From Candidatus Fermentibacterota bacterium (GTDB lineage Bacteria > JAFGKV01), in the NCBI GenBank assembly GCA_016928395.1, contig JAFGKV010000300.1, positions 1 through 34,761 of the forward strand: DNA of 34,761 nucleotides, given 5' to 3'. Under the pieces are notes generated by a model that searched no databases, was not told the DNA's origin, and saw only the letters and a program-made list of their open reading frames with translations. Of the stretch, positions 1 through 28,756 are shown in pieces (position 1 is the stretch's first letter; each line of letters starts with the position of its first letter). Position numbers and translations under genes: made by a program.

Positions 1-108
1 GAATGGCACAGCATCACCATTGTCCGCGATCCTGCCTGCCCGGCGTGCGGCGAGCCGGGAGACAGAGAGGAGGCTCCATGCGCTCACTGCGGTTCATGGG
101 ACCTGTAG
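1..108 (+). CDS. 3' end of ThiF/MoeB/HesA-family adenylyltransferase (partial, runs off window start)
   Basis: Frame 1 reads EWHSITIVRDPACPACGEPGDREEAPCAHCGSWDL*. RDPxCPxCG is the C-terminal Zn-binding motif of MoeB/ThiF, and it overlaps a ThiS/MoaD-like gene. Not in the ORF track. Confidence 0.75.
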   Translation, partial: EWHSITIVRDPACPACGEPGDREEAPCAHCGSWDL

Positions 109-305
109 AGCGTCCCGACTCCCTGCGAGTTGCGAGGGCTCTTGAGACTTCTGCGACGGTGACGGAGTTCCTGAGCGGATTGGGGTACGCGGCACGTCAC
201 CAGCACTACCTTCAGGTGAGCTCGCGGGGTCGCAGGCTCGCGCCGCATGATGCCTTGCCCGACGACGGGGAGATCGTGATTGCTCTGCCCATGGGCGGGG
301 GGTGA
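78..305 (+). CDS. MoaD/ThiS-family ubiquitin-like sulfur carrier protein
   Basis: About 75 aa from the ATG at 78 with an upstream AGGAGG. It ends ...LPDDGEIVIALPMGGG (C-terminal di-Gly) and lies next to a ThiF/MoeB gene. Confidence 0.8.
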   Translation: MRSLRFMGPVERPDSLRVARALETSATVTEFLSGLGYAARHQHYLQVSSRGRRLAPHDALPDDGEIVIALPMGGG

Positions 306-448
306 GGCGCAGCCTCGGACCCTGGGCACGCGGCTTGCGTTTCTTGTGACGAATGGCATCTTTCGCCACGCGATGAGACATGTCGATGCGCCTCGGGGGG
401 CGTCGCACGTCGACACAGAGATGCGGCAGACTCCGACGGAGGGAAGAG

Positions 449-961
449 ATGAACGACTCATTGAAGCTCGTGACTGAAGGGTTGCTCAAGGCCATGAAGG
501 CCGAACATGACGGCCACTACTTCTACCTCTCTGCAGCGAAGAATACGGAAGACCCTCAGGGCAAGAGCGTATTCGAGATGCTGGCGGATGAAGAGCGCGA
601 ACACATGGAGTTCCTTCGAGCCCAGTACGCATCATACATGGAGACGGGTCACGCGGACACCACGGTGTCGCTGCGGATGAAGAAGCAGCTCACCGGCGAG
701 AGCCCAATCTTCTCGAGTGCCATCAAGAAGAACATCAAGCAGGCCCATTATGAGATGAGCGCGCTCTCCATCGGCATTATGCTGGAGCAGAACTCGGTGT
801 CGTTCTATGAGGCCCAGGCCCGGGCCGTGGACGATGCGGAGGCACGCGATCTGTATACCCAACTGGCGGATTGGGAGCGAGGCCACCTTCATGCATTGAT
901 TCAGCAGGAGAACGCCCTCAAGGTCGACTACTGGCGCGAAGCGGGTTTCGAGCCGTTCTGA
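449..961 (+). CDS. Rubrerythrin/ferritin-like diiron protein (no rubredoxin domain)
   Basis: Two E...ExxH repeats (AEHDGHYFY...DEEREH; LEQNSVSFY...WERGH). GGAGGG RBS precedes the ATG at 449. Confidence 0.85.
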   Translation: MNDSLKLVTEGLLKAMKAEHDGHYFYLSAAKNTEDPQGKSVFEMLADEEREHMEFLRAQYASYMETGHADTTVSLRMKKQLTGESPIFSSAIKKNIKQAHYEMSALSIGIMLEQNSVSFYEAQARAVDDAEARDLYTQLADWERGHLHALIQQENALKVDYWREAGFEPF

Positions 962-1106
962 GCGGGGGTGGTCCGAGCGGTTGTGACGAACGCGAGGGAT
1001 GCGCGCACACGATGGACCCATGGCAAGAACGGCTGCGTGACGTCTGTCATGCCGGCGGGGTTCATGCGGCCTCTGGGCAGGGTTGGATGCCTGCCCCGGC
1101 GGGGAG

Positions 1107-2039
1107 ATGGGCGCTAAGAAACTCCTGCTGAAACAGCCCATGATGCGGGGGGTGCTCTGGGCTCTGCTGCCCGCCTTCGTGTGGACGGTGTATGTCTATG
1201 GCTGGCGCGCCGCGCTTCTGGTCACTCTCACCATGGCCGCGGCGGTGTTGGCCGAGGGAGCGTTTCTGTGGCGCGCAGGCACGCCGGTATCCGAGGCATC
1301 TCTGGTCACCGGCGCATTGCTGGGCATGTCGCTGCCGCCCTTGCTGCCGCTCTGGATGGGCCCGGTGGGTGCCGCGTTCGCCATCGTGTTCGGCAAGATG
1401 GTCTTCGGCGGGTTCGGCATGAACCCGTTCAACCCGGCCATGGTGGGGAGGGCGTTCATCTATCTGGCCTTTCCCGTGGCCATGACCGGGGGATGGGCCT
1501 CGCCCACCGTGGGGATTCCCGGTGGATTTGGCCTCTACTCCCCCGATGCGCTCACCGGCGCGACACCCATGGTGGCCGTGGAGCAGGGTGCGCCAGCGTC
1601 CCATCTGAGCCTGCTGGTGGGTCGTGAAGCCGGCTCGCTGGGCGAGGGCGCGCGTATCTTGCTGGTGCTGGGCGGCGTCTTCCTTTTGGTTAGGAAGTAT
1701 GCCCGCTGGCGGTTTGTGCTCGCGACCTTCTCCGGTGGGGTTGGTCTGGCGACGCTTTTGTGGGCCGCAGGCGTCCAAAACGCTCCGGATCCGCTCTATG
1801 TGATCCTCTCGGGCGGGTTCATCCTGGGTGCTTTCTACATGGCTACCGATCCCATCTCATCGCCCAAGACCATGCCGGGCGCGTGGGTGTATGGGGTGCT
1901 CATCGGTGCGGTCACCGTGGTCATCCGGGTGTTCGGCGCCTTCGCGGAAGGCATGATGTTCGCCATTCTCATCGGGAACATGGCGGGTCCGGTGGTTGAC
2001 TGGTGGGTCACCGACCGGAAGAAGGCGGACAAAGCCTGA
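1107..2039 (+). CDS. RnfD/NqrB-family membrane subunit
   Basis: Polytopic. Motifs FGKMVFGGFGMNPFNPAMVGRAF, covalent-FMN site DALTGATP, GSLGE and MATDPISSP. RnfD-like length with no NqrB N-terminal extension. Confidence 0.92.
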   Translation: MGAKKLLLKQPMMRGVLWALLPAFVWTVYVYGWRAALLVTLTMAAAVLAEGAFLWRAGTPVSEASLVTGALLGMSLPPLLPLWMGPVGAAFAIVFGKMVFGGFGMNPFNPAMVGRAFIYLAFPVAMTGGWASPTVGIPGGFGLYSPDALTGATPMVAVEQGAPASHLSLLVGREAGSLGEGARILLVLGGVFLLVRKYARWRFVLATFSGGVGLATLLWAAGVQNAPDPLYVILSGGFILGAFYMATDPISSPKTMPGAWVYGVLIGAVTVVIRVFGAFAEGMMFAILIGNMAGPVVDWWVTDRKKADKA

Positions 2040-2659
2040 TGCCCCGCACGCTCCGCTCCGTGCTGTTCATGGCAACGGTGTGCGCCGTGTGCACGGCCGT
2101 GCCGGCCATGGTCCGCGCGGCCACCTCCCGGAGGGTCGAGGCCCTGGAACGCCTGGCAACGTACCGCAATGTCCTTTCAATCTTGGCCATTCCCGTTGAC
2201 CATGGCCATCCGGCGGCCGTGGAGAGCGTTTTCATCGCATGCGTGCGGGAGCAGGTCATCGGCGGCCGCACCTTCTGGTTCGGTCTGGAGGCGCCTGCCG
2301 TGGGAGTCGTGGCGTTTGCGGTCAGAGGGCCGGGATTCTGGGGGCCCATTCACGGCATCGTCGCGGTGTCCGAGAATGACCATCGCATCGTGGGCATTCT
2401 GTTCACACGCCACGAGGAGACGCCGGGTCTGGGCGGTCGGATACGTGAACCATGGTTCGGCGAGCAGTTCCACGGCATCACGCTGGATCCGCATCGGCAG
2501 GGGCCTCTCGTCAGGCTCATCAGGCAGGGATCCAGGGAACACGCATGGGACGTGGACGCCATCACCGGGGCAACGGAGACGTCCAAGAAGATCCAGAGCC
2601 TGTTCGACAGCGATGTGCGACAGGCGCTCCTGACGCTGTCGGAGGCGGGCCGCTCATGA
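2039..2659 (+). CDS. NqrC/RnfG-family FMN-binding subunit
   Basis: N-terminal anchor; GPGFWGPIHG and HEETPGLGGRI (NqrC-like); FMN-attachment motif VDAITGATETS. TGATG overlap with the upstream gene. Confidence 0.88.
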   Translation: MPRTLRSVLFMATVCAVCTAVPAMVRAATSRRVEALERLATYRNVLSILAIPVDHGHPAAVESVFIACVREQVIGGRTFWFGLEAPAVGVVAFAVRGPGFWGPIHGIVAVSENDHRIVGILFTRHEETPGLGGRIREPWFGEQFHGITLDPHRQGPLVRLIRQGSREHAWDVDAITGATETSKKIQSLFDSDVRQALLTLSEAGRS

Positions 2660-3264
2660 CCTCCCGGCACATCTTCGTGGATGGCGTGTTCCGGCAGAAT
2701 GCCGTATACCGCCAGATTCTGGGCATCTGCTCGACCCTGGCGGTGACGAATCTCCTGAGCAATACGCTGGTCATGAGCCTCGGGCTCGTGTTCGTGACCG
2801 CCATGAGTTCCCTTACGGTGAGCCTTCTGCGCACGGTGACGCCGTCACGCATCAGGATGATGGTGCAGGTGATGATCATCGCCACCTATGTCATAGTGAT
2901 CGACCTCGTGCTCCAGGCATTTCTGCCCGAGATCTCCCGGAGGCTGGGGCCCTATGTCGGTCTCATCATCACCAACTGCATCATCATGGGTCGCGCCGAA
3001 GCCTTTGCCGCCAAGAACCCGCCATGGCCGTCGTTTCTGGATGGTGTGGCCATGGGGTTGGGCTACACCGTGGTACTCATGAGCATCGCGGTGGTGCGCG
3101 AGCTGATGGGCTTCGGCTCGCTGTTCGGGATCACGGTGCTTCCTCCATGGTTCACCCGGTGGACGATCCTCACCATGGCGCCGGGGGCCTTCTTCATGGT
3201 CGGCATCGTGATCTGGGTCATGAATACCCTGGATCCCCCGGGCAGAGCTGGGCAGGCCCGATGA
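2656..3264 (+). CDS. NqrD/RnfE-family membrane subunit
   Basis: LGICSTLAVT and YVGLIITNCIIMGRAEAFA, carrying the two conserved Fe-S Cys. ATGA overlap with the previous gene. Confidence 0.92.
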   Translation: MTSRHIFVDGVFRQNAVYRQILGICSTLAVTNLLSNTLVMSLGLVFVTAMSSLTVSLLRTVTPSRIRMMVQVMIIATYVIVIDLVLQAFLPEISRRLGPYVGLIITNCIIMGRAEAFAAKNPPWPSFLDGVAMGLGYTVVLMSIAVVRELMGFGSLFGITVLPPWFTRWTILTMAPGAFFMVGIVIWVMNTLDPPGRAGQAR

Positions 3265-3857
3265 GTCACGGAACTCTCTCCGCCTTGGTGATCCTGTTCG
3301 CGGCGGTGTTCACGAACAATGTCGTGCTTTCCAACTTCCTGGGTCTGTGCTCGTTTCTCTCGGTGTCCCGCGCGGTCACATCATCCATCGGATTGGGCAT
3401 GGCGGTCACCTTTGTCATGACAACCACCGCGGGTTTGAACTGGCTCGTGTACCACCATGTCTTGGTGCCGCTGGGGTTGGTGTATTTGCGATTCGCCGTG
3501 TTCATCATCGTCATCGCCGCCTTCGTGCAGTTCGTGGAGATGGCGTTGGAGCGGTTGGCGCCGGCGCTCTACTTCGCTCTGGGCATCTTCCTGCCGCTGA
3601 TCACCGTCAACTGCGCGGTGCTGGGGGTCGCCCTGTTCATGATCATCCGCCAGTACAGCTTCCTGGAGTCCGTGGCTTATGGTCTCGGCGGGGGAGTGGG
3701 CTTCTTGGTCGCCATCACAGTGCTGGCGTCGCTGCGCTGGCGAATCAGGAAGAGCAAGGTGCCGCCGGCCCTGCAGGGCGCAGGCATCGCGGTCATCATG
3801 TCAGGGATCATGGCCTTGGGATTTGTGGGCCTCTCCGGGCTGATCACGATCAACTGA
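3261..3857 (+). CDS. NqrE/RnfA-family membrane subunit
   Basis: NNVVLSNFLGLCSFL and LGIFLPLITVNCAVLG, carrying the two conserved Cys. ATGA overlap. Confidence 0.92.
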   Translation: MSHGTLSALVILFAAVFTNNVVLSNFLGLCSFLSVSRAVTSSIGLGMAVTFVMTTTAGLNWLVYHHVLVPLGLVYLRFAVFIIVIAAFVQFVEMALERLAPALYFALGIFLPLITVNCAVLGVALFMIIRQYSFLESVAYGLGGGVGFLVAITVLASLRWRIRKSKVPPALQGAGIAVIMSGIMALGFVGLSGLITIN

Positions 3858-3860
3858 GGG

Positions 3861-3932
3861 GGACGGATGGACGGAGAAGCGGTATGGAATGGTGGAATAC
3901 TGGAATGATGGACCGATGGGACGGATAGACGG
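3861..3932 (+). repeat. GGA-rich short tandem and direct repeats in an intra-operon spacer
   Basis: 8-bp units tggaatgg/tggaatac/tggaatga/tggaccga (3885-3916), flanked by ggacggatggacgg (3861-3874) and ggacggatagacgg (3919-3932). Confidence 0.7.
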
Positions 3933-4003
3933 GCGGGTGGGGGCAGGGCTGTCCAGGCCTTGTGGTTCGTGGTCTCCATGACCAGTCTTGAGGGTTCCCG
4001 TAC

Positions 4004-5113
4004 ATGACCTCCGTGCTGGTTGCGGTGGGTGCGGTGACTGCCATCGGGGCGGTTTTGGCCGCGCTTCTGGAGATGGCGGGAAAGCTGTTCGCCGACTACG
4101 GCGACGTGACCGTGGATGTCAACGCGGGTTCACGCACTCTCACGGTTGAGGGCGGCGGCCACCTCCTCGGCACATTGCGGGAGCAGGGCATCTTCATCCC
4201 TTCGGCCTGCGGCGGGCGAGGATCGTGTGGCGCCTGCAAGCTGAAGGTCACCGAAGGCGGTGGCCCGGTGCTGCCCACAGAGACGCCCTACCTCTCGGCG
4301 ACGGAGCGTGCAGACGGAGTGCGGATCTCCTGCCAGGTCAAGGTGCGCTCTGATGTGGCCATCTGGATTCCGGAGGAGATCTTTGCAATCCGGTCGTGGA
4401 AGGCGACCCTGGCGGCCATACGGATCCTCAGGCCCGGCATGGTCGAGCTGCGCTGGGAGTTGCCCGCGGGCGAGCGGATCAGGTTCAAGGCCGGCCAGTA
4501 TGCCCAGCTCAAGACAGCCCGCTACGGCAAGGTGAAGGAGGAGGTGTTCCGTTCCTACTCCATCTCCTCCTCTCCCCGTGACGAGCGGGCCGTGGAGTTC
4601 ATCATCGAGCGGGTGGAAGGCGGCATCTGTTCCACGTGGGTGTGTGACCACTTGCAGGTGGGCGACACCGCGGAGATTTCCGGGCCCTACGGCGACTTCG
4701 TGCTGTCCGACACCGACCGGGAGATGATCATGATCGCGGCAGCCTCGGGCATGTCGCCTATCAAGAGCATCCTGCATGCTCTTGAGGAGCAAGGAAGCAC
4801 TCGGAAGGCGACCTTCTTCTTCAGCGCCAGGAACATGGGTGAGCTGTTCCACCTTGACCTGATGAAGCGGTTCGAGGAGACTCTGCCAGGGTTCGCCTTC
4901 GTGCCGACCCTCACGCGGCCCCCGGAGCCCGATGCCTCATGGCCCGGGAAAACCGGACGGGTGCCGGCTCTCATTGCCGAGATGATCGGCGATCGGGTGA
5001 AGGACGCGGAGGCGTATCTATGCGGCGGAGCAGGGCTCATCGATGGCTGCACCGCGGCCCTTTGGGCCATGGGTATGCCGAATGAGCGGATCTTCTACGA
5101 CAAGTTTGAGTAG
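4004..5113 (+). CDS. NqrF-like membrane-anchored 2Fe-2S/FAD/NAD(P)H oxidoreductase
   Basis: N-terminal TM helix; IPSACGGRGSCGAC...RISCQ 2Fe-2S motif; RSYSISS and GGICST FAD motifs; GPYG; C-terminal IFYDKF. Confidence 0.9.
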   Translation: MTSVLVAVGAVTAIGAVLAALLEMAGKLFADYGDVTVDVNAGSRTLTVEGGGHLLGTLREQGIFIPSACGGRGSCGACKLKVTEGGGPVLPTETPYLSATERADGVRISCQVKVRSDVAIWIPEEIFAIRSWKATLAAIRILRPGMVELRWELPAGERIRFKAGQYAQLKTARYGKVKEEVFRSYSISSSPRDERAVEFIIERVEGGICSTWVCDHLQVGDTAEISGPYGDFVLSDTDREMIMIAAASGMSPIKSILHALEEQGSTRKATFFFSARNMGELFHLDLMKRFEETLPGFAFVPTLTRPPEPDASWPGKTGRVPALIAEMIGDRVKDAEAYLCGGAGLIDGCTAALWAMGMPNERIFYDKFE

Positions 5114-5120
5114 GCAGGCC

Positions 5121-5588
5121 ATGAAACAGACACCCCGGGAACGACGCATAGAGATGCGGATGGAAGAGGGTACACTGGCGCGGGACGGGTTCCTGGGCGA
5201 TGATCCTCTGAGGCTGGACCGGATGGACGTCGACGCGAGGGTCCTGGCGGATGCAGGGATTTCACGGGAGGAGATCGGAGAGGTGCTGCAGGGTTTGTGG
5301 CAGAGGGCCCGGGCTTTGATGGGCGAGGCGTATGAGCCGGTGCCAGGCGTGACGGTAGAAGTTGGAGAAGCCCGGGGCCGAATCCCCTGCCCCTTCGGCC
5401 ATCCAGGGATCTATGCCAAGGGGGTGATGACCATCGAGCATGGGGATCGGGTGCTGCGTGTCTCGCCCCTTTCCATTCACATGATCCGATCCCACGGCTT
5501 CTTCGGCGGCCGAGGCAGCATGTTTCGTATCGAACCCGATGCCGCAGCAGACCTGGTCCGGCGCCTGGCCGCCCCTGCCTGGCAATAG
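5121..5588 (+). CDS. Hypothetical soluble protein coupled to the nqrF-like gene
   Basis: Starts 8 nt after the nqrF-like stop. Protein-like composition with motif-like segments DGFLGDD, RGRIPCPFGHPG and IHMIRSHGFFGGRGSMFRIEP. Confidence 0.75.
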   Translation: MKQTPRERRIEMRMEEGTLARDGFLGDDPLRLDRMDVDARVLADAGISREEIGEVLQGLWQRARALMGEAYEPVPGVTVEVGEARGRIPCPFGHPGIYAKGVMTIEHGDRVLRVSPLSIHMIRSHGFFGGRGSMFRIEPDAAADLVRRLAAPAWQ

Positions 5589-5651
5589 CGAGGACTATCC
5601 CAAGGGTTGTTGTCAGTGATTTCCGTGGGCAGACTCTCAGACAGGTGAACG

Positions 5652-5697
5652 CTTTGTTTTTTCAAGTATGTTTGCATTAACTTTGTTTTTTGAAGTA
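5652..5697. repeat. AT-rich 17-bp direct repeat (possible regulatory site)
   Basis: ctttgttttttcaagta (5652-5668) and ctttgttttttgaagta (5681-5697), 16 of 17 identical, period 29 bp. Confidence 0.7.
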
Positions 5698-5907
5698 AAT
5701 GATTCCTGCCGCGCGCGCCGCGGCGGGCGAGTGCCGAACTCTGGGCAGGAGAGATCGATGCCTTCTCATCGGCTTCGGGCGACGCCCGTACTGCATCCTC
5801 GCGCCGGGGGTGGGGCCGGTGTATTGTGTCGGGATCATTGAGTGACGCTCTGCCTGTCGCCGGGGACTACGGCGCCGGGCAGAGCGTCTGGACCGGGTGA
5901 TACGCCT

Positions 5908-8900
5908 ATGGCACGCGATGTTGTTCTGGCCCCGTCCTTTCCGCTCTTGCTCCACCGTCTCGTAGCGCGGGTATGCGCCCACCACCACGATGATCCTCTG
6001 GTGTCTGAGATCATTTTGGTTCCCAATGCGCCCGTGGCTCGTTTCGTCGAATCCGCCCTGGCGGCCGCATCACCTGCTCCGCTGCTCAATGTGCAGGTCA
6101 TTCCCATTCGATGGGCGCCCCAGCGCCTGGCGCCTCGGGATGTCCATATCCCCGAACCCCCGGCGCCGCTTCTGCTGGAGGGCGCGGCTCGCCGCCTGCT
6201 CAGGCGGCATATCCCCGCCATGGCGGTGCTTGACGGCGCCGAGCGGGCTTTGATGGCGACATTCACCGACCTCCTGGATGCCGGGTTCATCGACAAGGAG
6301 ACGGTGAGGGAGTTCGGCGCTTCGCTTTCTGTGGAGGGCCAAGATCGGCAAACCCTGAAGTTGTATGCCCTGTGGCTCGAGCTGCTGACGAAAGCGGGTC
6401 TCGTGCCGGCGCAGATAGCCTTCGCTCGGTCGTCATGGCCAGTTGAAGCCCGGTGGCTGCATGTCTTCGGGTTCCTGCGGGTCGAAGGAGTCCTGGCCGA
6501 CATGATCGACCGATGGGCCCATGCATCCTCTGACATGGATGTCGCCCACTACTTCCCCTGCCACCCTGATGCCCTTTCCGGGAAGCTGTTCGGCTATGAC
6601 TACGTGGCAGGGCATGTGGAGCAGGCCCACCTGCACCATGTTTCCGAGCGTATCCGTGCCCCGGCATACTCCAGTGGTCTATTCCCCGAGATCGATGCGA
6701 TCCTTGTCCGGGATACCCCCGGGGGCAACGCCATGCACGACGTCCGGCTAGACCAGGTGGGGTTCATCGCCGCGGCCGGAGAGGCAGGCGAAGTCGAGGC
6801 AGCGGCCAGGATAGTTGCCGAAGCCCTGGCCGAGCCTTCCCGCACCGTACGCCCCGAGGATCTGGCCGTGCTCGCTTCTGACATTTCACTCTATGAACCC
6901 TTCATCAGATCGATCTTCGCCGAGATGGATCTTCCCGTTCGATGGCTGCACCCCGTGTCCGCCGGGCAACATCCCGCGGTCCGTTGGATGTCCACCCTAC
7001 TGAGTCTACCGCAGGGCGGGTTCTCGGCCGTCTCCGTTCGTGAACTACTGGGCTCACCATTTGTGCGGCTTCCCGCGCCCTGGGACGCGGAAGACTTCAC
7101 CCTCCTCGATGCGAAGCTCCGTGAGATGGGCAGTACACCGCTCGCGGGCGATGAGTGGCGTGCGAGATGGTGCGACAAGCCCGGTGAACCGTGGGCAGAG
7201 TTGGCCGCGGCCTTTGTCGGAGAGCTAAAGGCCAGCTTTGGAGCTCAGTCGTGTGGTGGTTTCGTCGAACTCATGCAGGGCTTTCTCAACCGATGGGTGA
7301 CCCCAAAGATCATCGAGGATGACGGAGTACTGGCGGCGTGGGTGAGAGGAATCGAGTGCCTGAGAGACCTGGATACCCTGGGATATCCTGATGACGAACC
7401 CGCCGGTGACATAGCTCGCGTGTTCTGTCATGATGCACTGGAAGGCGTGTCTCTTCCAGGAGCCCAGCAGGCACGAGGCGTCATGGTGGGCAGCATGTCG
7501 GCGGCATCGGGTATGGCGTTCGATCGGGTGGTGATCATGGGCGCGAACCGAGGGCGGCTCCCACGACAGGCCCGCGAGGATCCGTTGCTGTCCGATGCGG
7601 CGAGATCCCGGATCGCGGCGGATCTTGGATATGGTGTCCCCCTGGCGTCCGATGCTCCCAGACGGGACAAGCTGCTGTTCGTACTCACCATTCTGTCCGC
7701 CCGCGAACGGGCATGGGTGACGTATCAGCATGCCAGTGCGAATGGTGATGCCAAGAGCCCTTCACTGTTCTTCCCTCTCATCTTCGGAGAGCATGCCGAC
7801 CAGGTGATCCAGTTTCACACCGATCGGTCATCGCGGCTTACGCAGATCGTGGAACGGGGGGAGCATCATCTCACCGCGCGGGAGGCAGCACGGCTTATCC
7901 TGGGGGAGGGCGACTCGCGCCGAGTTGGGATGCTGACCTCACTCCTTGGCCAAGCCTTCACCTCGGGCCTTGATCGAGCGCGTGCAGTGCTGCGGGCGCG
8001 GGAAGGCACAGAGGCAACCATCTTTGACGTAGGTGCAGCAGCGCCACGGGACGCGATCGTAGGGGCGTTAGGCTCGACAGGCGCGTGGCGCGATCTCGAC
8101 GCCTGCCCCTTTCGATTCTTCTTGGGGCGGGTCCTGAGGATTCCCGAGCCAGGGGAGACCGCAGGGCTTTGGCAACCGACCATGCTGGACAGGGGGAAAC
8201 TTCTGCACAAGGCACTGGAGATGGCCCTGCTGCCTGGGATTCCCGCAAAGCACCAGTGTCGCCAGCGTGCGCAGGAGGCATGGGAGGCGGCACGAACCTG
8301 GTACCTGTCCGAGCATCGTCACGCCGATCTCCCAGGGTTTGTGGCGCTGGAACTCGATCAGGTGGCGCAGTGGTTTGTGCCGACTCTCGAGGAGGAGATT
8401 CGTTTGGTGGCGCGGCGACGTCAGGCCGTGGGCGAGGGTTTGCGGGTCGGTACCGAGCAGTCGTATGATGGCATGTTGACCCTCGATGGAGAGCGGATCC
8501 CGCTTCGGGTCAGGTTCGATCGGCTCGAGAGCCACCGAGCCGCGGGGAAGTCCGTTCCCCTTAGGATCGTGGACTACAAGCTCCATACCCGCGAGAAGAG
8601 TATTGACCGCGATGCCATCAATCTCCAGGCATTTCTGTATGCGGAGGCGATAGAATCGGCCCAGGGGATTCGACCTGATACCGAGTATGTGGAAATCGTG
8701 CCAGAGTCTCTCCCCGCACAGACGCTGTCCGTCGACGCAACTGACCGCACCGCAAAGGATCTCTTTCGACGAAAGGCGTCGCATCTGCTGAGAAGCGCGC
8801 TGGCGGGCGTCTGGCACCTCCGCGAGGAGCCTGTCACCTGCGCCTACTGCCCCTACTCGCGCGTGTGCCGCCGCTACGATTCCACAATTCTGGGCAAAGC

Positions 8901-9006
8901 GACGAGGCTCCGCCGGGAACATGACGCTGTCCTCAAGGACCTGGACAGGGAACTGACCAAGCGACTCAAACCGACCCTGAGTCAGCGATACGGAGGGGAC
9001 GAGTGA
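5908..9006 (+). CDS. addB: AddB/RexB-like inactive-helicase plus PD-(D/E)XK nuclease subunit
   Basis: Degenerate SF1 helicase body (FDRVVIMGANRGRLP, EDPLLSD). C-terminal nuclease RFDRLE...IVDYK with Fe-S staple Cys (ACPFRFF ... CAYCPYSRVC). Overlaps the addA-like gene. Start uncertain (5842 GTG alternative). Confidence 0.8.
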   Translation: MARDVVLAPSFPLLLHRLVARVCAHHHDDPLVSEIILVPNAPVARFVESALAAASPAPLLNVQVIPIRWAPQRLAPRDVHIPEPPAPLLLEGAARRLLRRHIPAMAVLDGAERALMATFTDLLDAGFIDKETVREFGASLSVEGQDRQTLKLYALWLELLTKAGLVPAQIAFARSSWPVEARWLHVFGFLRVEGVLADMIDRWAHASSDMDVAHYFPCHPDALSGKLFGYDYVAGHVEQAHLHHVSERIRAPAYSSGLFPEIDAILVRDTPGGNAMHDVRLDQVGFIAAAGEAGEVEAAARIVAEALAEPSRTVRPEDLAVLASDISLYEPFIRSIFAEMDLPVRWLHPVSAGQHPAVRWMSTLLSLPQGGFSAVSVRELLGSPFVRLPAPWDAEDFTLLDAKLREMGSTPLAGDEWRARWCDKPGEPWAELAAAFVGELKASFGAQSCGGFVELMQGFLNRWVTPKIIEDDGVLAAWVRGIECLRDLDTLGYPDDEPAGDIARVFCHDALEGVSLPGAQQARGVMVGSMSAASGMAFDRVVIMGANRGRLPRQAREDPLLSDAARSRIAADLGYGVPLASDAPRRDKLLFVLTILSARERAWVTYQHASANGDAKSPSLFFPLIFGEHADQVIQFHTDRSSRLTQIVERGEHHLTAREAARLILGEGDSRRVGMLTSLLGQAFTSGLDRARAVLRAREGTEATIFDVGAAAPRDAIVGALGSTGAWRDLDACPFRFFLGRVLRIPEPGETAGLWQPTMLDRGKLLHKALEMALLPGIPAKHQCRQRAQEAWEAARTWYLSEHRHADLPGFVALELDQVAQWFVPTLEEEIRLVARRRQAVGEGLRVGTEQSYDGMLTLDGERIPLRVRFDRLESHRAAGKSVPLRIVDYKLHTREKSIDRDAINLQAFLYAEAIESAQGIRPDTEYVEIVPESLPAQTLSVDATDRTAKDLFRRKASHLLRSALAGVWHLREEPVTCAYCPYSRVCRRYDSTILGKATRLRREHDAVLKDLDRELTKRLKPTLSQRYGGDE

Positions 9007-12000
9007 TGGGCGCAGGCGCACGCCCGACTGATGCCGCCGAGCGGATCGCCGCAGTGACGACCTTCGACCGCAATGTGATGGTCGTGGCCGGCGCCGGCAC
9101 CGGGAAGACCGCGCTCCTGACGGCTCGGGCTTTGGTCTATCTGCTCGGTGAATCCCATATCCAGCGACCAAAGCGCAACGCGGCCCAGCGGGCCGACGAA
9201 ATCCTGGCCCTGACCTTCACGGAGAAGGCCGCTGCCGAAATGGGCGAACGCCTGGTCGGTTTTCTCGGCGCGCTGTCGCGACCGAACGCCGCTGAAACCC
9301 TGGAGGGACCGCTGGTTGAGCTAGTGTGGGAACCGCTGAGACAGAAGTACGGGCTCTCCGAAGATGAGATCCGGCGGCGTGCCGCCGAGGCGCTGGAGCA
9401 TGTCGAACGCGTCGAGACCTCCACCATCCATGCGTTTTGCTCATCGCTGCTCCACCGCTACCCCTTCCAAGCCGGTGTGTGCCCCACCTTCGAGGTGGAC
9501 ACGGAGGGGGAGCAACTTGATGCCATTCTAACACAGGTCTGGGAAGCGCATGTGCGGGACCAACTCGGCGACCCTGCGGACGTGGCCGATGCGTGGCGAA
9601 CCGTCTTCGGTGCAGGATTGGACTTGCCTACGCTGCAGAAGTTCGTGAGGGCACTGGTCACGTCGCGAGTGCCGACTGAGCTGCTGCTGGAACCTCGAGT
9701 ACTTGTCGGCGATCCCGACGAGCACGCGGCACGGCTTTGCGATGCCCTGCCCGAGCTGGAGAGGGTGGCGGCGACAATCGAGGGATTGGATCTGCCCCCC
9801 AAACTCAGGCTGGGAAGGTGGGCTCGGGTCGCGCTCGCGATGGGTCACGCATATGCATCGCCCGGCGGCCGTGCTGATCCCGAGGTTGTGAATGAATGGG
9901 ACAAGGTTCTGGAGAATGATGTCGAAGGTCTCTTCAACGCCACGACCGCCAAGCGATTGGCTACTCGGGGCATTTCTGAGGAGCAGCTTCAGCCGGGTGT
10001 AGGGATGATCGTGGAACTGGTAGAAGAGGCCAGGGCCTTCACTCCGGTGGAAATGACTGCCGTCCATGAGATATGCGCGCCGATGATTCGGGAAGTGCGG
10101 GAGCGGGCCGCGCGGGAAGGCGCCCTCGGTTTCGAGCAGCTCTTGGTGCACGCCGCGGAGCTGATTGCCTCCAACGCCGCCATTGCGGCCAGGTTACGAG
10201 AACGCTACCGGTGTGTCTTGCTCGACGAGGTCCAGGACACGGATCCGCTGCAGTACGACATCATCAAGCCGTTCCGTGGCCGGGGACACACGCCCTCATG
10301 GGGGACGCATGGCAGCTTCGTGGTGGGCGATCCCAAGCAATCCATCTACCTGTTCCGTGATGCGGACATTGAGGCGTTTCAGGTTCAGACGGATGAGTTG
10401 GCTCAGACGGGTCTCTCCGTCACCATTGACGCCAACTTCCGCTCTGATCCCCGCATCATCACAGTCGCGAATGCGCTCTGTAGCCGTCTCTTCGCCACGG
10501 GAAACCACCCTCGAGAGGTTCAGCCGGCCTACGAACCGCTGACCCCGCATCGCGAATCAGAAGGCGGGGACGTGCCGGTCGAGGTAGTGCGAGTCGAGGT
10601 TCCGGGGCCCAAGGTCAGCAAGGGGGACTGTGCCCGCGCGGAGATCGGTGTGGTGATCGAGCGCCTGCGCGCTTTGCGCGGGCAGTTCGCCTGGCGAGAC
10701 ATGGTGATTCTGGTCCCGACACGGACGGGGATCGACGAACTGCATGGCGCGCTGCAGGAGGCGGGGATTCCCGCGGTGTTCTCGGGAGGCAGGGGCTTCT
10801 ACACGCGGCAGGAGGTGCTGGACACGGTGCATCTGTTGGCGAGCCTGGCGGACCCCAGCGACAAGGGAGCGCTGGTTGCGTTCCTGGGCTCTCCCGCAGG
10901 AGGTGTCGGCAACGATGACCTGTTGGAGCTCTGCGCGGCGGGCCTGGCCGAGGATTTCACCTATCTGGACGTGGCGGCCCTCGACCGACCGGAACAGCAT
11001 CCAGGCCTTGGAGGTCTGGCTTTCGAGGAGCGCCAACGAGTCGCAGGGGTACTGACCGAACTGGCCCGGCTGCATCGTTGCATCAGGGAGTGTGAGACGT
11101 GGGAGGCGTTCCAGGATCTCAGGCAGGCGCTTCCCGTGGTCGAAGCGTGGGGCTTCAGCCGATTCGGCAGGCAGCGGATGGCCAATGTGGACAAGCTTCT
11201 GGACGAAGTCGAGGCCCGGGTTCGGGCCGGATCGAGCCTGGCGACAGTGGTGCGGGAAATGGTGGAGCAGGAGCTGGTGGAGCGGGAAGGAGAGGAGAGT
11301 GCGCTGGCGAGCCCGACGCTGGATGCGGTGACCATCGAGACCATTCACGGTGCCAAGGGCCTGGAGTTCCGAGTCGTGATCCTGGCGAATCTGCTTCGCG
11401 ATATCAAACCGGAGACCGAGAAGAATCTCTATGTCGCCCGGGATTGGACCAGCGGCAGGATCGCAGCTCGGGTGGGAGCGCTGAGAAACCACGCCGCGCG
11501 AGCCTACCACCTCTCCAGATGTCGGAAGAAGGAGGCGGAGATTGCCCGCCTGTTGTATGTCGCGCTGACCCGTGCCAAGAACCGATTGGTCCTCTTCCTT
11601 TATCCCTCTCTCAGAGGCATCACCTATTCGAGCCTGCTAACGAAGGCGTTGGACGAGGCGTGTGCTGCAGGGGAGTTAGAGGACGATAGAGAACTGACCA
11701 TCGCCGCGGGTGGGGAAGCAGGGAGAGAGGAGGCCTTGATGGCACAGCCCCGTCGGCCGGCCGTTCCCCTGGACGCGATCGTCTCGAACATCCGGCAACG
11801 CCGCGAGGCGCGCGCGACTCTTCAGGCACTACCGGCGCGGCTGACGCCGTCATCGGGAGACGAGCCTTATCCACGGAGGGAGCTGCCCGCTGAGGATACG
11901 GAGGCATACCCCGAATCACGGGATAGGGCGTTGCGTTTCGGCGATCTGTGTCACGCCGTGCTCCAACATCTTGATTTGACGCAGCCAGACGAGGATTTGA

Positions 12001-12401
12001 ATCAGGCGCTTGCATCCCCCCTGGCGCAGCGAATCGCAGGGAATCTCTACGGCGAGCTGGTTGATGAGGCGCGAGAGGTCCTCGCGGCCGCGATCCAGGC
12101 GCCTTTCTTCCGCGAGGTTATCCTGGGCGCTGATCAGGCGCTGCGCGAGCTGGCGGTGCTGGAAGATGTGGACGGCGCCACCCTGTCGGGTCGGATCGAT
12201 CTGGCGGCCCGCTCGGGTACTGCATGGATCGTCGTGGACTTCAAGACCGATCGCGAGATTGCCCCGCCCGAGGAACTGCTCGCTCGCTACGGCGGCCAGA
12301 AGGAGGCCTATTCGCGGGTACTCGGCCGGGCTCTCGGGCTTTCCAACGCACCCCGCTTCTTCCTCTACTTCCTTCGTCATTGTGCTGCGGTTGAGTTGTA
12401 G
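9003..12401 (+). CDS. addA: AddA/RexA-like UvrD helicase-nuclease
   Basis: AGAGTGKT, LTFTEKAAAEM, STIHAFC, LDEVQDT, VGDPKQSIYLFR, NFRS, TIHGAKGLEF, LYVALTRAK; C-terminal nuclease GRIDL...VDFKT. Confidence 0.88.
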   Translation: MMGAGARPTDAAERIAAVTTFDRNVMVVAGAGTGKTALLTARALVYLLGESHIQRPKRNAAQRADEILALTFTEKAAAEMGERLVGFLGALSRPNAAETLEGPLVELVWEPLRQKYGLSEDEIRRRAAEALEHVERVETSTIHAFCSSLLHRYPFQAGVCPTFEVDTEGEQLDAILTQVWEAHVRDQLGDPADVADAWRTVFGAGLDLPTLQKFVRALVTSRVPTELLLEPRVLVGDPDEHAARLCDALPELERVAATIEGLDLPPKLRLGRWARVALAMGHAYASPGGRADPEVVNEWDKVLENDVEGLFNATTAKRLATRGISEEQLQPGVGMIVELVEEARAFTPVEMTAVHEICAPMIREVRERAAREGALGFEQLLVHAAELIASNAAIAARLRERYRCVLLDEVQDTDPLQYDIIKPFRGRGHTPSWGTHGSFVVGDPKQSIYLFRDADIEAFQVQTDELAQTGLSVTIDANFRSDPRIITVANALCSRLFATGNHPREVQPAYEPLTPHRESEGGDVPVEVVRVEVPGPKVSKGDCARAEIGVVIERLRALRGQFAWRDMVILVPTRTGIDELHGALQEAGIPAVFSGGRGFYTRQEVLDTVHLLASLADPSDKGALVAFLGSPAGGVGNDDLLELCAAGLAEDFTYLDVAALDRPEQHPGLGGLAFEERQRVAGVLTELARLHRCIRECETWEAFQDLRQALPVVEAWGFSRFGRQRMANVDKLLDEVEARVRAGSSLATVVREMVEQELVEREGEESALASPTLDAVTIETIHGAKGLEFRVVILANLLRDIKPETEKNLYVARDWTSGRIAARVGALRNHAARAYHLSRCRKKEAEIARLLYVALTRAKNRLVLFLYPSLRGITYSSLLTKALDEACAAGELEDDRELTIAAGGEAGREEALMAQPRRPAVPLDAIVSNIRQRREARATLQALPARLTPSSGDEPYPRRELPAEDTEAYPESRDRALRFGDLCHAVLQHLDLTQPDEDLNQALASPLAQRIAGNLYGELVDEAREVLAAAIQAPFFREVILGADQALRELAVLEDVDGATLSGRIDLAARSGTAWIVVDFKTDREIAPPEELLARYGGQKEAYSRVLGRALGLSNAPRFFLYFLRHCAAVEL

Positions 12402-19361: not shown

Positions 19362-19595
19362 ATGCCGACCGAGGCGTCCACAGTCTCCGAGGTCATCATC
19401 CGGGAGGAAGAGTGCAAGGGATGCCACCGATGCGTGGATGCGTGCCCTGCACACGTCCTCGAGGTGGCGGCGCACTTCAATCTCATGAGCTATCATCCCG
19501 CGCGGTACAAAGGCGAGGGGTGCACGGGGTGCGCGACATGCTTCTACACGTGCCCTGAGCCAGGGGCGATCACCGTAATCCGGCGCCGACGGTAG
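19362..19595 (+). CDS. 2x[4Fe-4S] ferredoxin, delta subunit of 2-oxoacid:ferredoxin oxidoreductase (VorC-like)
   Basis: [12 protein letters not shown] and [20 protein letters not shown]. Confidence 0.92.
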
Positions 19596-19606
19596 GAGGG
19601 AGTGTC

Positions 19607-20659
19607 ATGGCGAAGCAGTTCATCAAAGGCAATGAGGCAGTAGTCAAGGGTGCGATACTGGCGGGCTGCCAGGCGTACTACGGCTACCCGATTACGCCGG
19701 CCAGCGAGATCGCCGAGGCGGCTGCCTACTACCTCCCTCTCCTCGGTCGAACGTTTCTCCAAGCCGAGAGCGAGATAGGCGCCATCAACATGGTGTATGG
19801 CGCTGCATCCGCGGGTATCCGGGTCATGACCGCCTCATCCAGCCCGGGCATCAGCCTCAAGCAGGAAGGCATCAGCTATGCCGCAGGCGCCGAGCTTTCC
19901 TGCGTGGTGGTCGACATCACCCGCGGAGGCCCCGGCTTGGGCAACATCGCCCCGGAGCAGAGCGACTACAATCAGATGGTTAAGGGTGGCGGCCATGGCA
20001 ACTACAAGCTCATCGTGCTGGCGCCCAACTGCGCCCAGGAGATGTGCGATCTCACCATGCATGCTTTCGATCTGGCCGATCGGTATCGTACGCCGGTGGT
20101 CGTCATGGCCGATGGGTTTGTCGGCCAGATGATGGAACCGGTAGAGTTCCCCGCCCCGGTAGTCGACTTGCCACCAAAGCCTTGGGCCACAGCCGGGACC
20201 CCCGAAACCTACAAGAACCTTATCACCTCCATTGACCTGGAACCCGATGACTTAGAGCGGCACATCAACCACCTCTATGCCAAGTACGCCGAGATCGAGG
20301 CCAATGAGGTTCGCTACGAGGAGTACATGGTCGACGACGCGGATCTGGTGTGTATCGGGTTCGGCGTGGTCTCCCGCATTCTTCAGAGCGGCATCGAGCG
20401 GGTCAGGGCCGAGGGCAAGAAGGTCGGGTTGCTGCGGCCTATCACCTTGTGGCCGTTCCCCGAAAAGCGCCTCGCCCGGCTTGCCGACGAAGGGAAGAAG
20501 CTTTTGGTGATGGAGATGAACAAGGGGATGATGGTCGACGATGTCCGCCTGGCTGTGCAGCACCGGGTGCCTGTCGGGTTCTACGGCAGGGTGGGAGGAA
20601 ACGTCCCTTCGGGCCGTGAGGTCTACGATCAGATCATGCTGCATCTGGAGGCTGTGTGA
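19607..20659 (+). CDS. vorB: 2-oxoacid:ferredoxin oxidoreductase alpha subunit (ketoisovalerate oxidoreductase VorB type)
   Basis: [60 protein letters not shown]. Confidence 0.88.
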
Positions 20660-22098
20660 TGGCCGAGACAATCTTCCGCAAAGCCAAGTCATTCTACGAC
20701 GTGTATGAGCGCAAGGCCGGCGCCAACAAAGACGTCACGCACTATTGCCCCGGCTGCGGGCATGGAATCCTGCACAAGCTTATCGCCGAGGCCATGGACG
20801 ATTTCGACCTCAAGGAGCATACGGTCCTGATCAGCCCAGTGGGCTGCAGCGTGTTTGCCTACTATTACTTTGACTGCGGCAATATCCAGGCCGCCCACGG
20901 GCGGGCTCCAGCAGTGGCCACGGGCGTGAAGCGCACCAATCCGGACAGCGTCGTCATCTCCTACCAGGGTGATGGGGATCTGGCCGGCATCGGTGGCAAT
21001 GAGATACTCCAGGCGGCCAACCGAGGGGAACGCATCAGTGTGTTTTTCGTGAACAATGCCATCTATGGCATGACCGGCGGCCAGATGGCGCCGACGACGC
21101 TGCTGGGCATGCGCACCACCACCAGCCCCCATGGCAGAAGCATCGGTAATGAGGGCTATCCTCTGCATATGTGTGAGCTCATCAGTACACTGGAAGCTCC
21201 GGTCTATGTGGAGCGAGTGTCCCTCACCGACGCCAAACACATCATGCAGGCCCGCAGGGCCGTGCGAAAGGCCCTGAAGGCGCAGATGGAAGGTAAGGGG
21301 TTCACTTTTGTGGAAGCTCTGTCTGCCTGCCCGACGAACTGGAAGGTACCAACCCGGGAAGCCAACCGATGGATCGTCGAGATGATGGAGCCCGTGTTTC
21401 CCATTAAGGTCTTCAAGGATGAAATCGAGACCCGGGAGGTCGTCCCACGCGAGAAGAAGACATACACTCCCCACGAGATCGTCGAGACCCTTGATCTGCC
21501 CACCGGCGACGAGACCGTCAGCTTTGTCAGACCTCCCAATGCCCTGAAGGATCCCGAGATCAAGGTCGCGGGGTTCGGTGGCCAGGGTGTTCTGCTGCTG
21601 GGCCTCGCGTTGGCCCAGGCAGGTATGCGGGCCGGCTATCACGTGACGTGGCTCCCGAGCTATGGCCCCGAAATGCGCGGCGGCACCGCCAATTGCCATG
21701 TGCGGATCGCCGAAGGGCGCATCGGCAGCCCTCTGGTGCACGAGTCCGATGTGCTCATCGCCTTCAATGGGCCGTCTTTGGACAAGTTCGCCTCTCTGGT
21801 CAAGCCGGGTGGTCTGATTCTCTATGATAGCTCACTCATCGACCGCACCATCGAGCGGACCGACGTGAAGGCTCTCGGGCTTCCTTTTACCGAACTCGCG
21901 GACAAGGAGCTTGGCAACGGAAGGGCCTCGAACTTCGTGGCCATGGGCGCGTTCATCGTCGCGTCCCGGGGCGTATTCGATGAACACGTAGTGAAGTCGA
22001 TCCTGCCTTTAGTAATCAAGCGGAAGAACCTGATCGAGCTGAACGAGCGGGCCGTGGCCGCGGGTATGCGGATCGCCCGCGAGGCCTTGGGCTCATAG
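20659..22098 (+). CDS. vorA: 2-oxoacid:ferredoxin oxidoreductase fused beta+gamma subunit (VorA type)
   Basis: Beta part: HYCPGCGH, TPP motif GDGD...NNAIYGMTGGQ, SACPTNW. Gamma part: AGFGGQGV, PSYGPEMRGG. Confidence 0.85.
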   Translation: MAETIFRKAKSFYDVYERKAGANKDVTHYCPGCGHGILHKLIAEAMDDFDLKEHTVLISPVGCSVFAYYYFDCGNIQAAHGRAPAVATGVKRTNPDSVVISYQGDGDLAGIGGNEILQAANRGERISVFFVNNAIYGMTGGQMAPTTLLGMRTTTSPHGRSIGNEGYPLHMCELISTLEAPVYVERVSLTDAKHIMQARRAVRKALKAQMEGKGFTFVEALSACPTNWKVPTREANRWIVEMMEPVFPIKVFKDEIETREVVPREKKTYTPHEIVETLDLPTGDETVSFVRPPNALKDPEIKVAGFGGQGVLLLGLALAQAGMRAGYHVTWLPSYGPEMRGGTANCHVRIAEGRIGSPLVHESDVLIAFNGPSLDKFASLVKPGGLILYDSSLIDRTIERTDVKALGLPFTELADKELGNGRASNFVAMGAFIVASRGVFDEHVVKSILPLVIKRKNLIELNERAVAAGMRIAREALGS

Positions 22099-28707: not shown

Positions 28708-28756
28708 GCATGGCCGGCGTTCCCGGCCGGCCTTGGGCGGCGTCGTGGAAGTCCTG

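Follow-up and report, generated by a model that had tools for sequence, protein, structure and literature searches.

A six-gene NqrBCDEF-type cluster without NqrA in Candidatus Fermentibacterota: a putative sister lineage of Na+-NQR and its conserved sixth gene

The stretch of DNA analysed here (the window) comprises positions 1 to 34,761 of contig JAFGKV010000300.1 from the Candidatus Fermentibacterota assembly GCA_016928395.1 and has a guanine-cytosine content of 63%; the assembly is in 343 contigs and 94% complete. Close to the start of the window lies a gene cluster related to two ion-pumping electron transfer complexes, Rnf (RnfCDGEAB) and Na+-NQR (NqrABCDEF), an NADH:quinone oxidoreductase that translocates Na+. 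Its genes are referred to as B, C, D, E and F, followed by a sixth gene, X. An earlier sequence-only reading had described the cluster as a five-gene hybrid of Rnf and Na+-NQR. The features of the locus are the following.

449-961, + strand: rubrerythrin/ferritin-like gene directly 5' of B (open reading frame (ORF) 380-961, probable start at 449)
1107-2039, + strand: subunit B (RnfD/NqrB family), 310 amino acids (aa), RnfD-sized, with flavin mononucleotide (FMN) threonine T153
2039-2659, + strand: subunit C (RnfG/NqrC family), PF04205 FMN_bind, with FMN threonine T179
2656-3264, + strand: subunit D (NqrD/RnfE family), with cysteines C25 and C108
3261-3857, + strand: subunit E (NqrE/RnfA family), with cysteines C30 and C118
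4004-5113, + strand: subunit F, NqrF-type reductase, 369 aa, with an N-terminal helix and 2Fe-2S ferredoxin, flavin adenine dinucleotide (FAD) and NAD(P)H domains
5121-5588, + strand: X, soluble protein, 155 aa, 7 nucleotides (nt) past the F stop codon
5589-5841, no strand: AT-rich spacer 3' of X, rich in T-runs

Genes B to F, all on the + strand and spanning 1107-5113, match Rnf/Nqr subunit families in Pfam and NCBIfam. Subunit B scores 292 bits with PF03116 and passes the rnfD model TIGR01946 (235.9 versus a cut-off of 207); the nqrB models give only 176-207 bits against cut-offs of 350-414. Subunit D passes the nqrD model NF006777 (243.6 versus 235). The best NCBIfam model for C is nqrC with 80 bits, which is under every cut-off, and E stays under the cut-offs of both rnfA (213.7) and nqrE (198.4). 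Subunit F carries Fer2, FAD_binding_6 and NAD_binding_1 domains and reaches 240.5 with the nqrF model TIGR01941, under the cut-off of 295. In alignments, B matches solved RnfD chains over its full length and NqrB only over NqrB residues 153-404 of 415, and therefore lacks the NqrB N-terminal region.

The redox ligands of the Rnf/Nqr membrane core and of an NqrF-type NADH dehydrogenase are all retained. The FMN threonines of B and C lie in TGAT motifs and are T or S in 71/71 B and 67/67 C sequences of the family. The two cysteines each of D and E and the four of F (C69, C75, C78 and C110) are all present, each being kept in 75-81 family members, and the four F cysteines together with the RxYS motif are kept in 81/81 sequences. 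D and E of the window family bear NQR-type signatures (ICS/TNC in D and VNC in E), whereas Rnf has MCP/VNC in D and TNC in E.

By inspection of the sequence, the genes overlap by TGATG at the B/C junction and by ATGA at the C/D and D/E junctions. The E/F pair is not translationally coupled, since 146 nt separate the two genes. X probably starts at 5121, inside the ORF 5043-5588. The spacer at 5589-5841 likely marks the end of the transcription unit and probably holds a terminator and promoter region; a scan of 1-6200 for consensus promoters and terminators gave the same counts as shuffled sequences, and no terminator was called in the spacer. Three exact contigs of one metatranscriptome library map to 3497-3647, 3647-3797 and 3876-4071, of which the first two fall on E and the third bridges the E-F spacer into F. 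They give a weak hint that the cluster is expressed, as the library comes from the same study as the best DNA match to the window and DNA carry-over is possible; stretches without RNA cover are no proof of silence. Two DNA runs and a further RNA run contributed nothing on this point.

At this level the sequence-only reading is confirmed in each detail that was checked. The five genes are where it had placed them, in nqrBCDEF order on the + strand, with overlapping membrane subunit genes, both FMN motifs and the four membrane Fe-S cysteines intact, and a B subunit of RnfD size without the NqrB N-terminus. Its proposal of an NAD(P)H input agrees with the domains and motifs of F, which fit NADH, and the cluster has no neighbouring gene for NqrA, RnfC or RnfB. 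It had counted five genes, however, and the unit comprises six; its range up to 5588 already included the ORF of X, which was left undescribed.

The lack of NqrA extends to the whole genome at 94% completeness, where the best match to TIGR01936 (16.4 bits) falls on RnfC. RnfC and RnfB occur once each, with the one true RnfC hit on contig C121, and the RnfD/NqrB Pfam model finds two genes, the C121 copy and the B gene of the window. Since contig C121 holds all of an rnfC-D-G-E-A-B operon with apbE behind it, the host has a normal Rnf complex in addition to the window cluster, and its RnfC and RnfB have partners of their own. The claimed absence of all three proteins thus holds genome-wide for NqrA and at the locus only for RnfC and RnfB.

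Relatives of this cluster are widespread. Of 8000 candidates scored for F, 5159 are relatives at E<=1e-3; the top 120 of these have 363-375 aa and the same three domains. A genome collection yielded 542 F relatives, and the best 80 of these (44-51% identity) were fetched with their surroundings; all locus counts out of 80 refer to this set. Their hosts are Spirochaetota, Cloacimonadota, Planctomycetota (including Kuenenia and Brocadia), Verrucomicrobiota, Clostridia, Lentisphaerae, Kiritimatiellota, Fibrobacterota and Chitinivibrionales. The gene order is B-C-D-E-F-X wherever the contig is long enough, and X lies directly 3' of F in 80/80 loci, with 30-43% identity. A Pfam survey of the flanking ORFs, which took the two closest to the cluster on either side with a length of 60 aa or more (135 downstream and 106 upstream, 241 in total), revealed no conserved gene besides B-F and X. 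NqrA and RnfC domains are absent from all 106 upstream ORFs; RnfB had no hit at any of the 80 loci, three of which show weak RnfC-like hits about 7 kb upstream. At the level of whole genomes, 51 hosts with the cluster were compared, the window's genome included; most are metagenome-assembled genomes (MAGs), with completeness figures only for the window's own genome. NqrA exceeds its cut-off in one of the 50 other hosts, where it sits in a separate canonical operon, and four further hosts have NqrA-like proteins of 90-144 bits which belong to other clusters. The window family is therefore a type without NqrA, RnfC and RnfB and always with X.

Phylogenetic trees were computed from 17 canonical nqrABCDEF operons, 12 canonical rnf operons, four odd clusters and the window type subsampled to 27-36 rows, by quick IQ-TREE searches with Shimodaira-Hasegawa-like approximate likelihood ratio test (SH-aLRT) support only and no bootstraps. 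The canonical nqr set came from Planctomycetota genomes only, in which NqrA passes its cut-off in 29/201. In the tree of B (67 rows, one dropped and one very gappy), SH-aLRT is 100 for each of three clades, namely the window type, NQR and nine Rnf rows, and a support of 97 separates Rnf from a group made up of the window type, NQR and two variants. The concatenated tree of D and E (52 rows) recovers the window type at 95, NQR at 100 and Rnf at 100; here the two variants group with NQR (94), and the split between all types bearing F and Rnf has 96. From these sequences the window family appears to be a deep sister clade of NQR which is nested neither in NQR nor in Rnf and is not a degraded NQR. 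That B passes TIGR01946 and yet falls outside the Rnf clade, together with NQR, illustrates in which sense the cluster is a hybrid: it is one only by model scores, because the D/E signatures and the trees side with NQR. The hybrid label of the earlier reading is accordingly correct for the profile hidden Markov model scores and does not extend to the D/E signatures. Its view of a distinct complex instead of a split nqr operon is upheld by the separate clade in both trees and by the missing NqrA; nesting inside canonical Nqr clades, which it had named as a counter-argument, was not observed, and the synteny survey it had suggested returned the same six genes. It is highly probable that the locus is a real operon, B-C-D-E-F-X, and at the same time the representative of a distinct family.

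The two variants in the trees are clusters of another type, A'-B-C-D-E-F without X, found at L154 (G044:C64) and L156 (G047:C4). Their A' protein has NQRA_2nd and NQRA_SLBB domains, scores 141-144 bits with TIGR01936 and retains a 4Fe-4S dicluster domain, and a Nuo51-type FMN domain was not detected in it. From its domains it looks like an intermediate from RnfC to NqrA, and the type groups with canonical NQR in the D+E tree as given above. A further arrangement (L155, G047:C4:128800-136500) consists of an RnfC-like gene, D, G, E, A, a 149-aa 'mini-F' with a membrane helix and a 2Fe-2S domain, and a 647-aa NuoF-like protein with Complex1_51K, NADH_4Fe-4S and Fer4 domains, which is another wiring of an NADH site to the core.

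The sixth gene, X, is about as conserved as subunit C. No Pfam or NCBIfam family matches it, Pfam gave nothing consistent on 34 X members, and a profile search against the PDB remained without a match (best E 0.27). The AlphaFold2 model has a mean predicted local distance difference test (pLDDT) score of 93.7 and consists of three helices, a four-stranded sheet and two helices. Foldseek against the PDB gave a best E of 0.14, and the best Z from VIA-align, run on 48,161 chains, was 2.5 with none at Z>=5; no NqrA, RnfC, RnfB or RnfH chain is among the 31 rows of the fold search. Judged from the model, X appears to belong to no known family or fold, and blank fold searches do not prove a new fold. 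In the Atlas it falls into unnamed clusters only, one of which carries PF25535 (DUF7919) on 13% of its members, and the name DUF7919 was not found in the literature searched. The X profile matches 2040 representatives at E<=1e-3 and 1058 at 1e-10 among 1.84 billion, nearly all of them stand-alone proteins of about 150 aa. Invariant residues are a Gly, a Phe, a Pro, two Asp, a Lys and an Arg. X is single copy in the window's genome and was found in 3/41 genomes of its relatives, its own included, in a lineage which is thinly sampled.

Where the operon is split, X stays with F. In a Kuenenia MAG, B-C-D-E lies on one contig and F-X on another, and in a Kiritimatiellota genome B-C is separate from D-E-F-X. 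Among 201 sampled Planctomycetota genomes, X is present in 17 with one copy each, and all 13 strong hits (13/13) come right after an F-like gene. In four of these 13 cases (L175-L178), the F-like protein is a soluble form (F') of 334-336 aa without the N-terminal membrane helix, encoded in an operon of thioredoxin-disulfide reductase (trxB; TIGR01292 363-365 versus a cut-off of 343), F' and X. Subunits B-E were not found within 7 kb of trxB-F'-X, and the RnfD family is represented in each of these genomes by one gene only, which is canonical in score and extent. The next gene encodes a DNA_alkylation (AlkD-like) protein in three of the four and CbiJ in the other. Because X accompanies F in split operons and in soluble contexts, its partner is best sought in this F-reductase clade and not in B. 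The idea that X simply replaces NqrA on B is thereby weakened. That X is part of the system is very probable, and that it binds F is somewhat favoured. A complex prediction of B, F(36-369) and X gave an ipSAE of 0.00 in both runs, with no controls, and counts neither way.

A few fusions hint at what X may contact. In one complete B-C-D-E-F operon (L182), the sixth gene encodes an X-rubredoxin fusion, and another such fusion (P0148), whose rubredoxin part is genuine, has three members on three contigs; the two are 59% identical. Single cases exist of X fused to a rubrerythrin-like domain (P0166) and to a nitroreductase (P0187). An AhpC/TSA-X protein (P0192) was not counted, as it looks chimeric, has a signal peptide and is truncated in both parts. 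As a separate observation, X-like stretches occur within very large proteins (L179, G058:C1; L180, G153:C85; P0121, P0171, P0254 and P0210), namely a 1030-aa HEAT-repeat protein, a 1150-aa ORF and proteins of 385-2506 aa with two to four X repeats and no Pfam domain. No F gene adjoins these large proteins where this was checked.

The gene content of the hosts bears on the electron acceptor. No menaquinone marker exceeds its threshold in 41/51 hosts. In the window's own genome, a MenA-like protein of the UbiA family remains below threshold (93.9 versus 102.15) and MenB reaches 42 against 342.7; MqnA/D and cytochrome bd were not found, both of which are soft negatives at 94% completeness. Near the cluster, a rubredoxin gene lies within about 3.2 kb in 9/80 loci from perhaps six lineages, rubrerythrin in four loci, nitroreductase in two, and desulfoferrodoxin and a Fur-family regulator in one each. 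The apparent enrichment of oxidative-stress neighbours is suggestive only. In the window itself, the gene at 449-961 matches PF02915 Rubrerythrin with 46.5 bits and shares 29% identity (E 2e-11) with the part of the P0166 fusion that is rubrerythrin-like. A homologue is near the cluster in one of the 80 loci (L017, tblastn), and the gene may be linked to the cluster in function but is no conserved part of it. Other neighbours were seen in three Cloacimonadales loci (L031, L038 and L045), where the gene directly upstream of B encodes an iron-sulfur flavoprotein of about 1100 aa (Fer2_4, Fer4_20, Pyr_redox_2 and Fer4_Nqo3) and the one directly downstream of X a DNA photolyase.

By homology with NQR, NADH would be oxidised at F, and electrons would pass from the FAD of F via its 2Fe-2S centre to the D/E cluster, the FMN of C, the FMN of B and a flavin in B, this flow toward B driving the export of Na+ or H+. 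The output would then lie at the B subunit, and since NADH enters on the D/E side and flow toward B couples to export, the acceptor should be more positive than NADH. Gene content suggests that this acceptor is not a quinone in most hosts, and for the window's host a non-quinone acceptor is rather more plausible than a quinone. The most speculative step is that the acceptor may be a soluble one-electron carrier of the rubredoxin type feeding peroxide or oxygen reductases, with X as an F-bound adaptor on which it docks; a rubredoxin-type acceptor is a concrete and still rather doubtful candidate. As a whole, an NADH-driven ion pump with a non-quinone acceptor is the preferred reading, held tentatively, and oxidative-stress chains of the rubredoxin type are the strongest lead to that acceptor.

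Several points weigh against this reading. MenA exceeds its cut-off in 8/51 hosts and MqnA/D were found in two more, all ten being genomes of the Planctomycetes-Verrucomicrobia-Chlamydiae group, and the window's genome has one NuoH-like gene. Gene absences across the hosts are soft because of MAG incompleteness. Most neighbours of the cluster are unrelated housekeeping genes, and oxidative-stress genes are found at about one tenth of the loci, several from related genomes; the association is for this reason a lead and not a result. X has no conserved set of Cys or His for a metal and is thus not an obvious redox carrier. The one F-X 'fusion' obtained in the search for longer X-bearing proteins (P0271) was discounted, as it is on one contig, lacks the last ~35 residues of F and has close relatives with separate genes. 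A rubredoxin docked on F by X could bypass the membrane core, which would leave the role of B-E puzzling. RnfC is over its cut-off in 45/51 hosts, usually as a single copy, and co-occurrence alone is therefore no argument against a sharing of RnfC; the absence of co-occurring NqrA or RnfC, which the earlier reading had expected, was found for NqrA (1/50 other hosts), whereas for RnfC it was not cleanly obtained. Every member of the family is known from sequence alone.

The complex might be an NADH:menaquinone oxidoreductase after all, with quinone reduction taking place within B, NqrA not being required and X serving F only as an aid to structure or assembly. B, D and E do group with NQR and not with Rnf, and ten of the 51 hosts have MenA or MqnA/D. 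In addition, a review states that NQR electrons pass directly to membrane quinone and, in the text available, describes NqrA as having neither cofactor nor assigned function (PMC12174285). Against this, 41/51 hosts are without a marker over threshold, the window's genome is without MenB, MqnA/D and cytochrome bd, and B is without the ~100-150 N-terminal residues of NqrB. Thermotogae, which are not known to have quinones, are moreover among the published hosts of such clusters. This explanation is considered unlikely. A comparably low probability is given to X as a maturation or regulatory factor of this F-reductase clade, acting in cofactor insertion or redox control, which would say nothing on the acceptor. 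It would agree with X accompanying F in membrane and soluble contexts, with the missing metal-ligand set and with canonical NqrF working without X, as the X profile had no hit in the 17 canonical nqr loci of Planctomycetota. However, an X-rubredoxin fusion which is stable in two sequences that are just 59% identical, as well as the other fusions to redox enzymes, fit an electron transfer adaptor better, and X is about as conserved as subunit C.

Alternatively, the FMN of C or B might donate electrons to an acceptor in the periplasm or outside the cell, in the manner of the flavinylated extracytosolic systems catalogued in Meheust et al. 2021. C has an exported FMN-binding domain, ApbE is beside the cluster in two loci (L042 and L083), and the metal reducer Alkaliphilus metalliredigens was reported with an NqrBCDEF cluster (PMC5924567). 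However, B and its FMN threonine are kept in 71/71 sequences and would be unneeded for a one-way outward path, and there is no conserved periplasmic partner gene among the 241 neighbouring ORFs. The 'NQR/RNF-like' system of Meheust et al. 2021, as far as it is described there, has a different architecture, an RnfD-NAD_binding fusion. Such an outward route is very improbable. Still less probable, to the point of being hardly credible, is that the complex borrows RnfC and/or RnfB from a canonical rnf operon elsewhere in the genome. The frequent presence of a usually single RnfC in the hosts would allow it, but RnfC lies within a full rnfCDGEAB operon in the window's genome as well as in the complete rnf loci fetched, B forms a deep clade separate from RnfD, and five hosts are without RnfC, two of which have ApbE in the cluster itself (L042 and L083). 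NADH entering at F and NAD+ leaving at RnfC would also amount to a futile cycle, and a sharing of RnfC is on these grounds unlikely.

The preferred reading, an NADH-driven pump with a non-quinone acceptor, can be set against the systems already described. With Na+-NQR (Vibrio cholerae and the Planctomycetota operons) the window type shares the B-C-D-E-F order, an NqrF-type NADH input in which the 2Fe-2S, FAD and NAD motifs agree, the FMN threonines of B and C, the four D/E cysteines and the NQR-type D/E signatures, and NQR is its closest clade in the B and D+E trees. It differs in the lack of NqrA, in a B subunit shorter by ~100 residues owing to the missing NqrB N-terminus, in an F subunit shorter by ~40 residues (median 367 versus 408 aa) and in the presence of X, which is absent from the 17 canonical nqr loci; most of its hosts are also without menaquinone markers. 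With Rnf it shares the homologous membrane core and a B subunit which is RnfD-sized and passes the rnfD model, and Rnf co-occurs in 45/51 hosts, whereas the window type has neither RnfC nor RnfB, forms a separate clade and has an NADH-oxidising F in place of ferredoxin delivery by RnfB. In anaerobes, soluble chains from NAD(P)H:rubredoxin oxidoreductase over rubredoxin to rubrerythrin, desulfoferrodoxin or flavodiiron proteins conserve no energy. The candidate acceptor would be common to these chains and the window type, with rubredoxin fused to X or nearby and rubrerythrin, desulfoferrodoxin and thioredoxin reductase as neighbours; the NADH dehydrogenase of the window, however, sits in a membrane ion-pump scaffold, and the likeness is known from genes alone.

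Clusters of NqrBCDEF without NqrA have been reported from Pseudothermotoga thermarum and P. lettingae (PMC4148951, 2014), from Clostridium ultunense and Alkaliphilus metalliredigens (PMC5924567, 2018) and from 'Ca. Izimaplasma' ZiA1 (PMC6256511), in each case with the partner stated to be unknown. In gene content, by which the comparison was made and not by sequence, they resemble the window type in the BCDEF order, the lack of NqrA in the genome and the additional presence of Rnf; the sixth gene, the phylogenetic position, the spread over phyla and the rubredoxin link go unmentioned in the accessible text of these papers. A 2021 paper on Cloacimonadota MAGs calls the NqrA-less complex simply NQR (PMC8542988). 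The NQR/RNF-like system of Meheust et al. 2021 is, in the portion of that paper concerned with it, one protein with an N-terminal RnfD/NqrB domain and a C-terminal NAD_binding domain, whereas B and F of the window are separate proteins and C, D and E are present. The words 'hybrid' and 'intermediate' do not occur in the available text of a 2025 review on RNF and NQR (PMC12174285), which does not treat the NqrA-less form there. The literature search returned remarks in genome papers only and no study of the NqrA-less enzyme, its sixth gene, its phylogenetic position or a rubredoxin link. The five-gene NqrBCDEF arrangement is thus already known and in print since 2014; the six-gene unit, the status as a sister clade and the F-X module are the additions.

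Further genes of the window are mentioned for completeness. Directly after the cluster, 5842-12401 encodes a pair of an AddB-like protein (PD-(D/E)XK nuclease, start at 5842) and an AddA/RecB-like protein (UvrD helicase and nuclease), for which all equivalog models are far under their cut-offs. At 19401-22098, a small 4Fe-4S ferredoxin-like ORF is followed by the alpha (POR_N, PFOR_II) and beta/gamma (TPP_enzyme_C, POR) parts of a 2-oxoacid:ferredoxin oxidoreductase (OFOR), and OFOR or pyruvate:ferredoxin oxidoreductase (PFOR) genes are likewise located just downstream of the cluster in L016, L019 and L027. The gene at 26356-28707 encodes 783 aa that comprise an SLT lytic transglycosylase domain as well as six LysM repeats, and the next one, at 28604-30229, an S13 D-Ala-D-Ala carboxypeptidase.

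So far, two pumps of this redox-driven class are known, Rnf and NQR. Genome papers have mentioned a third type only briefly, although it is phylogenetically separate and its thousands of sequences come from anaerobes of at least eight phyla. Its routine annotation is NADH:quinone oxidoreductase, also in hosts which seemingly make no quinone (e.g. PMC8542988), and a major NADH sink may for this reason be misplaced when the metabolism of fermenters, syntrophs and anammox bacteria is reconstructed. The family is also relevant to the origin of NQR from Rnf. Variants with a 4Fe-4S dicluster NqrA-like subunit stand beside it. X provides an experimental handle, the soluble F'-X pair should be easier to express and assay, and the candidate acceptor is concrete and testable. 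In its most far-reaching form, which is distinctly improbable, quinone- and cytochrome-free strict anaerobes would make NADH with Rnf, and the NqrA-less pump would oxidise this NADH, export Na+ or H+ and reduce rubredoxin via X for rubrerythrin, superoxide reductase or flavodiiron enzymes. If this were true, the detoxification of O2 and H2O2 would conserve energy, X would be a new docking subunit with a new fold, and the family would be a living sister of the NQR lineage that predates the loss of the NqrA cofactors.

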